From the NCBI GenBank assembly GCA_022646745.1, contig CP060262.1, positions 3,330,001 to 3,362,000 on the forward strand: a stretch of 32,000 nt of DNA. The letters run 5' to 3'. Under the pieces are notes generated by a model. That model ran no database searches and was not told the DNA's origin. It saw nothing but the letters and a program-made list of their open reading frames with translations. Position 1 is the first letter of the stretch; each line of letters starts with the position of its first letter. The DNA comes from Planctomycetales bacterium. Its GTDB lineage: Bacteria; 4484-113; JAFGCY01. The position numbers were made by a program, and so were the translations under genes. Shown here in pieces: positions 1 through 2,708 of the stretch.

Positions 1-140
1 CGGGTTATCGTAATGGCTTACCCCTTCCTACCGGAATAAGGGTCGTAAGAAGGGGCATTTACACGTTCGTCGGAAGGGGTAGACGACCTCTTTCCAGAGG
101 ACTGAGCAGACTCAAAGTAGGTTCGAAGGTCAGCCAGGAG

Positions 141-231
141 GGGCTGCCAACCGGAACTTTCACCGCGCTCCGCGAGGAGCGCGTAAGGCAGAATCCAATC
201 CCAGAGCGCATTTCGGGAATTAACTCGCAGG
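141..231. repeat. IR-L: inverted 91-bp copy of the recombinase 3' end plus the 3'-terminal 9 nt of tRNA-Glu
   Basis: The reverse complement of 141-231 equals 2551-2641 at 90 of 91 positions; the only mismatch is 219 versus 2563. I first noticed it as the shared peptide RNALWDWILPYALLAERGESSGWQP in ORFs 18..470(-) and 1142..2644(+), then checked it base by base. Confidence 0.92.
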
Positions 232-237
232 GTTGGG

Positions 238-266
238 TTGTGCCTTCCTACAGTCAGGCAGATAAT
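238..266 (+). promoter_or_regulatory. Candidate sigma-70-type promoter of the MBL-recombinase operon, just inside IR-L
   Basis: -35-like TTGTGC (238-243), 17-nt spacer, -10-like GATAAT (261-266), 9 nt before ATG 276. This competes with an AGGGG Shine-Dalgarno reading at 269-273; both cannot be functional for the same transcript. Confidence 0.3.
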
Positions 267-275
267 GTAGGGGTT

Positions 276-1145
276 ATGGACATTCGAATCTTTGACGTTG
301 AACACGGCGATTGCATCTTGATTCTGAGTTCCAAGAATGAGGCCGTACTTGTAGATTGTGGTTGGAACCACACAACCGGCTGGAGAGTGTCCGATGGGTT
401 GGCAAAGCAAGGCTTTGGTAGTCGCCGGAAGCTCCATCATGTAATCATCACTCATCCAGACCAGGATCATGTTGCCGACCTACCAAACGTGCTTGAGACA
501 CTCAAGCCAATTCATGTCTGGCAACATCCTCAGTTGTATCTCAAGAACATCGCAGACTTAAAGGCCACGCTCAGTCTGGCGCAGAGTGCCTACCTTGCCA
601 GCCGGAAGTCTACTACGGAGCTTCAACCACTTGAGGCATCCAGACAGTTTCGGACAATGGAACTACACCAGTTCTACCTGCCGGTCGGCTCGGTGCGGGA
701 CGTTAACGACCTGTCGCTGGTAACGTTCCTCAAGGAAGATGGATTCACCGTCTGCCTGCCTGGTGACCTGAATGCTCGTGGCTGGCGTCTGCACTTGCAG
801 AACAAGGCGTTCCAGTACTGGCTTCGAGAGACAAACCTGTTCATTGCCTCACATCATGGCCGGATGTCCGGCTATCTCGACAAGGTGTTTGAATACCTCT
901 CTCCCAAACTGATTGCCATTTCCGACAAAGAGCAGACCAAAGGCAGGACAGTCACTCAGCGCGCGCCATACACTGACCATACCAGAGGCGTGAAAATGAA
1001 GGATGGCAGCTTCCGGCGCGTCCTGACAACCCGTGGCGATGGCAGAATCAGAATTGTCGTCAAAGATGGAAAGTGGGAAGTGGAAACCTCTCGCTCTCAA
1101 ACCAGTTATTCAAAACCATATTCCAACTCTAAGGAAAAACCATGA
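276..1145 (+). CDS. Stand-alone MBL-fold metallo-hydrolase, ComEC/Rec2-type beta-lactamase domain
   Basis: Starts MDIRIFDVEHGDCILI, has the metal motif ITHPDQDH, and a late IASHHG motif followed by P.LIAIS. All are typical of the ComEC C-terminal MBL domain. The stop overlaps the recombinase ATG (ATGA at 1142-1145). The ORF track start of 240 is a GTG; ATG 276 is preferred. Confidence 0.8.
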   Translation: MDIRIFDVEHGDCILILSSKNEAVLVDCGWNHTTGWRVSDGLAKQGFGSRRKLHHVIITHPDQDHVADLPNVLETLKPIHVWQHPQLYLKNIADLKATLSLAQSAYLASRKSTTELQPLEASRQFRTMELHQFYLPVGSVRDVNDLSLVTFLKEDGFTVCLPGDLNARGWRLHLQNKAFQYWLRETNLFIASHHGRMSGYLDKVFEYLSPKLIAISDKEQTKGRTVTQRAPYTDHTRGVKMKDGSFRRVLTTRGDGRIRIVVKDGKWEVETSRSQTSYSKPYSNSKEKP

Positions 1146-2644
1146 GCACTCCATCAGAGAACAAATTGAGATATCTGGCCTACTTCCGCAAATCCACCGA
1201 AAGTGATGAACGGCAGGTTCAGAGCATCCCTGACCAGAAGGATTGGGCTAACAAGGTTACTAACGAGCATCGGCTTACCATCATCAAGAGTAGGGAAGAA
1301 AGCAAGAGCGCTAAGAAGCCCGGCAGAAGTCAGTTCAATCTCCTGATTAAGGACATAGATGATGGCAAAGGCAACGCCGTTGTCGCATACGATGCTTCTA
1401 GACTGGCCAGAAACGCTCTTGATGGAGCCCGTATCATCGACTTGATGGACTCAGGAAAGCTTCAAGCAATCGTTACTGCTACGAACACGTTTCGCAATAA
1501 CAGCTCTGATAAGTTCATGCTGTCCTTCTTCTTTGCACAGAGCAAGCACTACGTTGACAACCTCAGCGAAGTGACATTGCGTGGAATGCGCAGCAAGGCA
1601 AAGAAGGGAGTATTCCCCGGTAGAGCCAAGTTTGGATATCTCAATCACCCTCGTACAAAGGAAATCGTCCCTGATCCAGAAGTATTCCCATACATCAAGG
1701 AACTGTATGAGATCTATGCCACCGGCTACTACGGCTTGCGGGAGATGTCAGAAGTTTCTTATGACATGGGACTCCGCAACTTCTCAGGTGGCATGTTGTC
1801 AAAGTCCCAGATAATGCGAATCCTGTCCGATCCCTTCTACTACGGAGCCTTCCGCTGGGCAGACGAAGACTATGAAGGCGTCCACGAGCCAGCCGTCTCC
1901 CATGAGCTGTGGGAGGCTGTTGAACGTGTCAGAAGCCACAGAGGACATTCAATCTCCAAGTGGCGCAAGCAGTATCCGTTCCTGGGTATGTTCCGCTGTG
2001 AGGAATGTGGAGCTTCCATCACTGCCGAGAAGCACACCAAGAAGTATAAGAACGGCTCCAGCCAGACCTGGCATTACTACCGCTGTACCAAGAAGAGCGG
2101 TACGCTCAAATGCCGTCAGCCCTTCACTAGGGAAGAAGTCCTCAACCAGTCCATTGCTGACCGCCTTCAAAAGATCAGTCTTCGTGAAGACTGCGCGGAA
2201 GCCATGCTGGAGCAGATTGACCGCTGGCAAGCGGAAGAAGGATCACGCGAAAGCGTGCAGATTGTGGAGTTGGAATTTGAAATTGAAAAGATCGAAGCGA
2301 AGCTTCGCAGGCTCACTGACTTGCACATAGATGGGGAGTTGGACATGTCCGACTACAAGAAGCGCAAGAGTGAGCTTATTAAGCAAAAGATCGCGTCGCA
2401 GACGCGCTTGAAGTTGGTTTCGCGAGAGGGGGTACGGGTATGGCTCGAACCCCTGCGAGAGTTAATAAACGCAGTCAGGGAGCGGAATCTCCCGACTGCG
2501 GGAAGTGATCTGCTTGAACTTCGCAACTTTGTTGCGAAGGTTGGCTCGAACCTGCGAGTTAAATCCCGAAATGCGCTCTGGGATTGGATTCTGCCTTACG
2601 CGCTCCTCGCGGAGCGCGGTGAAAGTTCCGGTTGGCAGCCCTAA
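1142..2644 (+). CDS. Large serine recombinase (resolvase/invertase catalytic domain + recombinase domain + zinc ribbon + coiled coil)
   Basis: N-terminal YFRKSTESDERQ places the catalytic Ser in the usual position. DASRLARN is present, as is a Cys-rich zinc ribbon (CEECG...YYRCTKK...KC) and a coiled-coil-like region (EIEKIEAKLRRLTDL). Length is 500 aa. The last 27 codons lie in IR-R and the stop TAA (2642-2644) lies inside the tRNA gene. Confidence 0.9.
   Translation: MSTPSENKLRYLAYFRKSTESDERQVQSIPDQKDWANKVTNEHRLTIIKSREESKSAKKPGRSQFNLLIKDIDDGKGNAVVAYDASRLARNALDGARIIDLMDSGKLQAIVTATNTFRNNSSDKFMLSFFFAQSKHYVDNLSEVTLRGMRSKAKKGVFPGRAKFGYLNHPRTKEIVPDPEVFPYIKELYEIYATGYYGLREMSEVSYDMGLRNFSGGMLSKSQIMRILSDPFYYGAFRWADEDYEGVHEPAVSHELWEAVERVRSHRGHSISKWRKQYPFLGMFRCEECGASITAEKHTKKYKNGSSQTWHYYRCTKKSGTLKCRQPFTREEVLNQSIADRLQKISLREDCAEAMLEQIDRWQAEEGSRESVQIVELEFEIEKIEAKLRRLTDLHIDGELDMSDYKKRKSELIKQKIASQTRLKLVSREGVRVWLEPLRELINAVRERNLPTAGSDLLELRNFVAKVGSNLRVKSRNALWDWILPYALLAERGESSGWQP
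2551..2641. repeat. IR-R: 91-bp partner of IR-L, covering the recombinase C-terminal codons and tRNA-Glu positions 68-76
   Basis: See IR-L. The outer edge of identity is exactly at 2641/2642. Beyond it, taacggg does not match ctcctgg, the reverse complement of the IR-L flank. Confidence 0.92.
2599..2618. repeat. Perfect 8-4-8 dyad CGCGCTCC-TCGC-GGAGCGCG inside IR-R, with an identical copy at 164-183 in IR-L
   Basis: Read directly from the sequence. The arms are perfectly complementary and the 4-nt centre is asymmetric. Confidence 0.85.
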
Positions 2645-2708
2645 CGGGACTCGAACCCGTGTTTCCGCCTTGAGAGGGCGGCGTCCTAGGCCACTAGACG
2701 ATAGGGCC
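2633..2708 (-). tRNA. tRNA-Glu, anticodon CTC, with encoded CCA
   Basis: The manual cloverleaf is GGCCCTA TC GTCT-AGTGGCCT-AGGAC G CCGCC CTCTCAA GGCGG AAAC ACGGG TTCGAGT CCCGT TAGGGCT G CCA. The D arm and 4-nt variable loop resemble bacterial tRNA-Glu. Pair 1-72 is a G-U wobble. Confidence 0.88.

Follow-up and report, generated by a model that had tools for sequence, protein, structure and literature searches.

The window is a stretch of 32,000 nt from a Planctomycetales bacterium (assembly GCA_022646745.1, contig CP060262.1, genome positions 3330001-3362000), and its start falls within a 33.8-kb island. Near this start, a metallo-beta-lactamase-fold (MBL) gene and a large serine recombinase (LSR) gene are overlapped at the recombinase start codon (ATGA) and together sit in a small recombinase module, and a tRNA-Glu(CUC) gene is found on the opposite strand at the 3' end of the recombinase. 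The pair is enclosed by a 91-nt inverted repeat, in which 141-231 (IR-L) is the reverse complement of 2551-2641 (IR-R) with 90 of 91 positions matched (99%). The features are listed below.

1..140, continuing to window -66, minus strand: P' arm of a spare inverted attP; 217-bp, 100% match to the attL copy
codons 140 to 21, stop at 18-20, minus strand: silent tail LLADLRTYFE..., 40 aa, inside the spare P' arm
141..150, minus strand: spare-attP crossover core, minus-strand reading TTGGCAGCCC; common to attL, attR and the attB of genome G001
141..231, minus strand: IR-L, spare-attP P arm, duplicating the final 30 recombinase codons (LRVNSRNALWDWILPYALLAERGESSGWQP); 91 nt, 1 mismatch
276..1145, plus strand: MBL gene; Pfam Lactamase_B, 5e-9
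1142..2644, plus strand: LSR, short form, 500 aa; assigned by Pfam domains, alignment A1 and the fold of a homologue
2551..2641, plus strand: IR-R, attR P arm and 3' coding end of the recombinase; assigned by the inverted-repeat match
2632..2641, plus strand: core TTGGCAGCCC at attR, right boundary of the island; direct repeat at genome 3298804-3298813 (attL)
2633..2708, minus strand: tRNA-Glu(CUC), the integration target; assigned by ARAGORN

An earlier note made from the sequence had described an inverted repeat with an in-frame extension on the minus strand, and this was verified. A minus-strand ORF spans 18..470, and the recombinase frame is read from 231 through 21 to the stop at 18-20. 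The upstream arm encodes the same 30 residues as the recombinase tail peptide, as had been stated, with one residue different. The sole mismatch between the arms gives N in the upstream arm (LRVN...) and K in the recombinase gene (LRVK...), and the N variant agrees with the near-identical homologue P0003. The open frame behind the arm also stood; its length was corrected from 41 codons to 40 sense codons plus a stop (LLADLRTYFESAQ...SGRKG). The plus-strand frame over 3-140 is open and contains many AGA/AGG/ATA/CGA codons when read from the sequence, in agreement with the same note. Similarly, the present short form indeed ends with ...SSGWQP at a TAA (2642-2644) provided by the tRNA-Glu(CUC) gene. 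The core at 141..150 includes the reverse complement of the tRNA 3' end GGGCUGCCA, and the last 9 nt of the tRNA, CCA included, come from the core of the element. The spare attP is located 45 nt upstream of the start of the MBL-recombinase operon.

The 500-aa recombinase was searched against Pfam, and the Resolvase (PF00239, 3.6e-20), Recombinase (PF07508, 2e-10) and Zn_ribbon_recom (PF13408, 5.5e-10) domains were found. The Y-x-R-x-S motif is nearly invariant at Y14, R16 and S18 in alignment A1, which places the protein among the LSRs. AlphaFold2 was used to model a long-form homologue, P0013, which is 49% identical to the window protein (pLDDT 86.8). The model matches the LI, SPbeta, Bxb1 and phiC31 integrases, with VIA-align Z values of 15.4 (4kis), 14.6 (9dxf), 12.8 (9iu9) and 12.0 (9rah). 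The coiled-coil and C-terminal-domain fold, with long helices at 201-300, was found on this homologue model and not on the window protein itself. The tail appears in the model as a confident extra C-terminal helix (350-364), beyond the portion aligned in most rows. This indicates that the truncated resident protein keeps all of the canonical integrase domains. The architecture differs from that of a small invertase, which has about 190 aa with a catalytic domain and a helix-turn-helix, and the domain set is that of a serine recombinase rather than of a tyrosine recombinase of the SSV1 type. The analogy to Gin/Cin drawn in the earlier note was dropped on enzyme type: small invertases work with an enhancer, whereas this large serine recombinase has an attP/attB system.

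The island and its three sites

The region from window -66 to 150 includes the tail with its core and another 84 bases. All of its 217 bp (100% identity) recur, inverted, at genome 3298804-3299020. The inverted repeat with its extension is far outside what chance would give. The second tail copy lies in direct orientation to the recombinase gene at the far end of the island, 31 kb upstream of the copy in the window. The claim that the tail can be expressed only by inversion of the cassette is incorrect, because of this directly oriented copy at the left end. Three related sites were identified.

Site A, genome 3298804, plus strand: host flank, TTGGCAGCCC, tail
Site B, window 231 to -66, minus strand: last 30 codons, TTGGCAGCCC, tail
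Site C, window 2551-2650, plus strand: last 30 codons, TTGGCAGCCC, tRNA-Glu

Sites A and C are in direct orientation and have the form of attL and attR. An empty attB was found in a genome of the same genus (G001, L015:1505-1560), which reads ...GGTGATCTCTGCCGGGA, TTGGCAGCCC, TAACGGGACTCGAACC and is composed of the left flank of site A, the core and the tRNA. The same tRNA-Glu is present at this unoccupied site (L015:1534-1609). The empty site and the direct orientation of sites A and C define the insertion as 33.8 kb, genome 3298804-3332641. The element is bounded by attL and attR, and the same 10-nt core is common to attL, attR, the spare site and the unoccupied attB.

The cargo contains a type I restriction-modification system (HsdR and HsdM), a 2186-aa RHS protein (RHS toxin), a TraG/VirD4-like (coupling-protein-like) ATPase, a Replic_Relax (relaxase-like) protein, a class-V aminotransferase and an ATP-grasp enzyme. 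This predicted gene content marks the island as an integrative, mobilisable one and not as a prophage. Among IMG/VR viral contigs, the recombinase has no relative. Among plasmids, only a relative with 29% identity was found, and a free circular form was not recovered from the viral and plasmid sets.

The arrangement is most probably explained by an LSR-mediated insertion of the island into the 3' end of tRNA-Glu(CUC), by which the LSR gene itself was split; 1-231 is then a spare, inverted attP. The sites show that the attP crossover of the LSR is placed within its own gene, about 40 codons ahead of the natural stop. Recombination between attP and attB has split the gene, with the body at attR fused to the tRNA and ended by the immediate TAA, and with the natural C-terminal tail (LLADLRTYFE...) moved to attL, 31 kb upstream in the same orientation. 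Since the crossover is inside the recombinase frame, integration has cut off the natural C-terminus and left the tail at attL. Since an identical, directly oriented tail is found at attL, excision would rebuild the long protein without inversion. The excision product of attL and attR would restore the full-length gene in frame. The full-length protein would be the form of the free element, and the truncated protein the resident form.

The segment 1-231 is neither attL nor attR. It is a second complete attP (the last 30 codons, the core, the tail and 84 bp) in inverted orientation, and more than the C-terminal exon proposed earlier. The spare is expected to be a working attP, usable for integration in place of the gene-proximal attP. 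The free circle would hold two inverted attP copies of about 300 bp, which would divide a small recombinase module from the cargo. The short and long isoforms proposed in the earlier note can be kept in part: the long form would indeed result if the segment between the 91-nt arms were inverted, but integration explains the short form and excision the long form. Homologous recombination across the identical arms could also flip the recombinase module, and the long form would then be produced without excision. LSRs do not pair attP with attR (PMC3783163), and flipping would thus need host homologous recombination or an unusual activity. A canonical recombinase-mediated inversion between attP and attR is deemed unlikely for the same reason.

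A single-stranded DNA hairpin attP, as in the CTX phage, was also considered and rejected by reasoning, because cutting of a hairpin stem by a serine recombinase would leave the chromosome with two hairpin ends.

Conservation of the layout and constraint on the tail

A sister island is found in the same genome at 3790277-3822705 (loci L008 and L009). It carries an MBL gene and a recombinase with 52% identity to that of the window. Three sites were similarly identified: the MBL-recombinase pair is enclosed by an 88-nt repeat, the spare and the far-end site share a repeat of 389 nt, and the core has 8 nt. Its spare reads ...SSDWW followed by ALLHELRTYFEDSMNDM. The sister island is inserted at a non-tRNA site with the core ATTGGTGG. 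Four related genomes were examined for the empty form of this site, and none of them showed it. A sequence resembling the unoccupied target is located at genome 3742027-3742062.

A block of about 35 nt, AACCCGCTTCC[T/A]GACTGTG[C/T]AAACAGGCTGT, is conserved between both islands near the outer end of the P' arm (window -40..20; in L009 around genome 3819850-3819890), where the neighbouring P' DNA has diverged. This block could be an accessory site or part of the promoter region of the operon. A small XRE-type helix-turn-helix gene adjoins the spare attP on the cargo side in L018, L034, L046 and this island (about 3328715-3328936), and it is a candidate regulator of the recombinase module.

The layout was examined in two sets of 80 loci each. 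The first set came from species-representative genomes, among them Patescibacteria, Omnitrophota and Planctomycetota, and 75 of its loci were able to show the repeat; the second set came from metagenomes, with 74 such loci. The inverted repeat between the LSR 3' end and an upstream arm was found in 64/75 genome loci and 66/74 metagenome loci (130/149 together). The median length of the repeat in the genome set is 92 nt and the median identity is 98.7%; the upstream arm ends at a median of 91 nt before the start of the LSR match (65 genome loci). An antisense tRNA abuts the gene in 55 genome loci, and an abutting tRNA is present in 47 metagenome loci. Wherever 10 kb of upstream DNA was covered, a third site with a second P' copy was found, 1.2-8 kb away. 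The small elements contain only the XRE-type helix-turn-helix gene and the cargo beyond the recombinase module, with no directionality factor identified among their genes. At least 15 tRNA types were seen as targets, and in related planctomycete genomes as many as five copies were found, at different tRNAs.

Whether homologues end at the short position or carry the tail, as asked with the original observation, has a mixed answer. In most of them, ...W runs straight into an antisense tRNA, which gives the short form. A minority carry a contiguous long form (P0013, P0022, P0026, L081, L152, L163, L178 and L182).

The upstream arms of 37 elements were aligned in the recombinase frame, and a conserved ending, ...W-x-x-[LIV]-[LY]-x-[EK]-[IVL]-R-T-[FYH]-[FY]..., was identified. 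These endings are usually 15-20 residues long, and the tail here has 40 aa. Over the six codons before the Arg, the information content is 1.46 bits at position 2, and 0.52 and 0.57 bits at positions 1 and 3. The codons also vary synonymously, with Arg written as CGA, AGA, CGG or CGC and Thr as ACT, ACC or ACG. Together, the periodicity and the synonymous variation are the signature of a protein-level constraint on the predicted tail. The metagenomic relative P0002 keeps the tail frame through a 4-codon deletion. The suggestion that the tail is genuine coding DNA is borne out by the position-2-dominated periodicity and by the conservation of its first ~11 residues in the clade; only these (LL..LRTYFE) fall in the conserved motif, and the other ~29 are low-complexity and unconserved.

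Part of the conservation of the tail is at the DNA level, as indicated by an invariant CGAAC and near-exclusive use of the CGA codon, and so the protein-level argument rests on the remaining tail codons. The invariant Arg-Thr codons spell CGAAC, which is the complement of G53-T54-T55-C56-G57 in the tRNA T-arm. In 45/46 of the target tRNA arms, the first base of the pentamer [CT]GAA[CT] is nt 20 counted from TGG, the complement of CCA. Counted likewise, the start of CGAAC is at nt 25 (nt 25-29) both in the window and in the majority of the 37 P' arms that were aligned; TGG is at the fixed codon -8 in 30/37 of these arms. The pentamer is thus placed 5 bp further outward in the P' arm than in the tRNA arm. 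Rutherford et al. 2013 (PMC3783163) showed that serine integrases have the same zinc-ribbon-domain motif in attP and attB, with the motif 5 bp closer to the centre in attB. The att sequences here fit this 5-bp rule exactly. The shift supports the assignment of the tail DNA as the P' half-site and of the tRNA as the B' half-site. The recombinase would be expected to bind the pentamer motif.

Two loci of genome G003, L101 and L103, have the same spare reading (...EEWW followed by SLLSDLRTLWEDTA), and their targets are tRNA-Ala versus another tRNA-like end. This comparison of sequences suggests that general features of the tRNA 3' end are recognized rather than one tRNA, and the shared tRNA-end motif explains how near-identical recombinases are found at different tRNAs. 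In L169 (4095-5903), a contiguous long-form recombinase reads into a tail before the contig end, and a spare attP is also present. The two tails of this locus are not alike, CLLDEIRTFFDENPDC and CLFEKVRTHFAENPEN, which would fit a junction of the gene with the P' arm from another element.

Use of the spare site and alternative readings

The duplicated stretch is 300-470 bp, near-identical and far longer than an att site, and such near-identity points to recombination or gene conversion between the copies. The P-arm differences are 17 synonymous and 42 non-synonymous (pN/pS 0.71), which is almost neutral, so there is little sign that the spare arm is regularly translated. In L067 and L070 (2/160 related loci), the upstream arm rather than the gene 3' end is fused to a sense tRNA. 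In two further loci (L076:3775-5637 and L085:5397-7190), the recombinase lies between two different inverted tRNA-Ser genes, one per repeat arm. Since both attP copies are joined to tRNAs in these two, a chromosomal rearrangement between the two tRNA genes is implied. The tRNA is on the gene 3' end in about 100 loci versus the upstream arm in 2 (plus 2 with both), and the contiguous long forms number roughly 10. This bias fits two readings: a strong preference for the gene-proximal attP, or the departure of elements that regain the long form.

An invertible MBL-recombinase switch could instead be the main function of the repeat, and the 91-nt arms would then toggle between short and long isoforms of different activity. 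One example would be an active long form that leads to mobilisation and a locked short form. This is considered possible, at a confidence well below that of the split by integration. Inversion would yield the long form in frame, the near-identical arms in almost every element suggest ongoing recombination or conversion, and the overwhelming truncation of integrated elements would fit the loss of those regaining the long form. However, integration alone explains the short form and excision explains the long form, and the nearly neutral arm differences (17/42) give little sign that the spare is translated. The two loci with a sense tRNA on the upstream arm, which the switch would account for, could equally be derived from integration through the spare attP, and both contigs end before the 3' end of the gene. 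The enzyme is also not an invertase-type recombinase.

It is unlikely that the spare attP serves mainly as a regulatory operator, bound by the recombinase 45 nt upstream so that its own transcription is repressed or tuned, with the coding content incidental. The conserved position of the arm, whose end precedes the LSR match by a median of 91 nt in the 65 genome loci and the start of the MBL gene by 45 nt here, would agree with such a role. About 50 bp would suffice for an operator, yet the near-identical duplication reaches 300-470 bp, and the spare has recombined with tRNAs in other genomes. In addition, the surroundings of the spare attP were scanned for terminators and, among promoter types, for the simple sigma-70 consensus, and neither was found.

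The weakest reading, that 18-231 is a frame open by chance or the decaying 3' end left over from another recombinase gene that was deleted, could appeal to its lack of a start codon or an upstream gene of its own and to its antisense position to the MBL leader, and is held to be extremely improbable given the 90/91 identity to the live gene, the 217/217 identity to attL, the end of the repeat exactly at the crossover core, and the same arrangement in the diverged second island and in 130 of the 149 testable homologous loci. The pseudogene or chance-ORF candidate is refuted by the conserved three-site layout.

Returning to the split of the gene by integration, a wider and tentative proposal can be made, to which we give low credence. 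The DNA state would set the form of the enzyme: the free element would encode the full-length protein with the C-terminal helix, integration would remove the helix, and a flip mediated by the spare site would regain it. The presence or absence of the tail might then serve as a built-in switch of direction or activity, in place of a separate directionality factor. If so, this might hold across a very large tRNA-targeting family in CPR bacteria, Omnitrophota and Planctomycetota.

Comparison with known systems and implications

The recombinase resembles the Listeria A118/LI, Bxb1, phiC31 and SPbeta SprA integrases in its resolvase, recombinase and zinc-ribbon domains and its coiled-coil fold. Like the large serine integrases of phages and islands, it would integrate through attP and attB with a short identical core. 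Unlike those integrases, the elements here target the CCA end and T-arm of tRNAs, their attP lies inside the integrase coding sequence so that the enzyme is truncated by integration, and a second complete, inverted attP is found upstream of the gene. In literature searches, neither a natural doubled inverted attP nor a serine integrase with attP inside its own gene was found to be described.

The SSV1-type integrases of archaeal viruses are tyrosine recombinases with attP within the int gene, and their gene is intact only in the free element. As in that type, integration would partition the integrase gene and would target a tRNA gene; here, the crossover falls inside the integrase ORF after ...SSGWQP, with the in-frame tail at attL. 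Unlike in that type, the enzyme belongs to the serine superfamily, and only the last ~15-40 codons would be removed, against a large part of the gene in the SSV1 type. A spare inverted attP is absent from SSV-type elements and present in the elements here. The recombinase is SSV1-like only in the partition of its gene by integration and is not a member of the SSV1 type.

The Salmonella Hin H segment and Gin/Cin are similar in that a recombinase gene lies between inverted sites and inversion would swap a C-terminal coding end. Unlike in those systems, the enzyme is a large serine integrase and not a small Fis- and enhancer-dependent invertase, the sites are an attR and a full attP whose arms span 91 nt, inversion is only predicted, and the gene that would change is the recombinase itself.

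The yeast 2-micron plasmid (FLP) is comparable in another respect. The predicted circle would have two long inverted repeats, each holding a recombinase site, which would split it into a small recombinase module and a large cargo module. Unlike the 2-micron plasmid, the element here is integrative, FLP is an unrelated tyrosine recombinase, and isomerisation and a copy-number role would be hypothetical for the element.

Serine integrases are core tools of genome engineering, and the choice of direction is an active structural question. The clade invites tests on this point, since the attP sits inside the integrase gene and integration would edit the enzyme. It would recognize the universal CCA end and T-loop of tRNAs, and the predicted 5-bp shift between attP and attB can be read from natural sequences. 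In addition, the clade regularly retains a spare inverted attP. The questions raised include the control of activity or direction by the C-terminal helix and the need for two inverted attP sites. The 5-bp outward placement of the zinc-ribbon-domain motif in attP is shared with the phage and island integrases (PMC3783163).

For this genome, the analysis defines the 33.8-kb island with its cargo, together with the sister island. For annotation, it explains integrase genes that seem to end oddly inside tRNA genes and the contig breaks around them. Contigs often end within a repeat arm, as in L020, L021, L035, L041, L058, L074, L079, L090, L095 and many metagenome contigs, and the elements of this family are a systematic cause of assembly breaks beside tRNA genes in CPR and related genomes.
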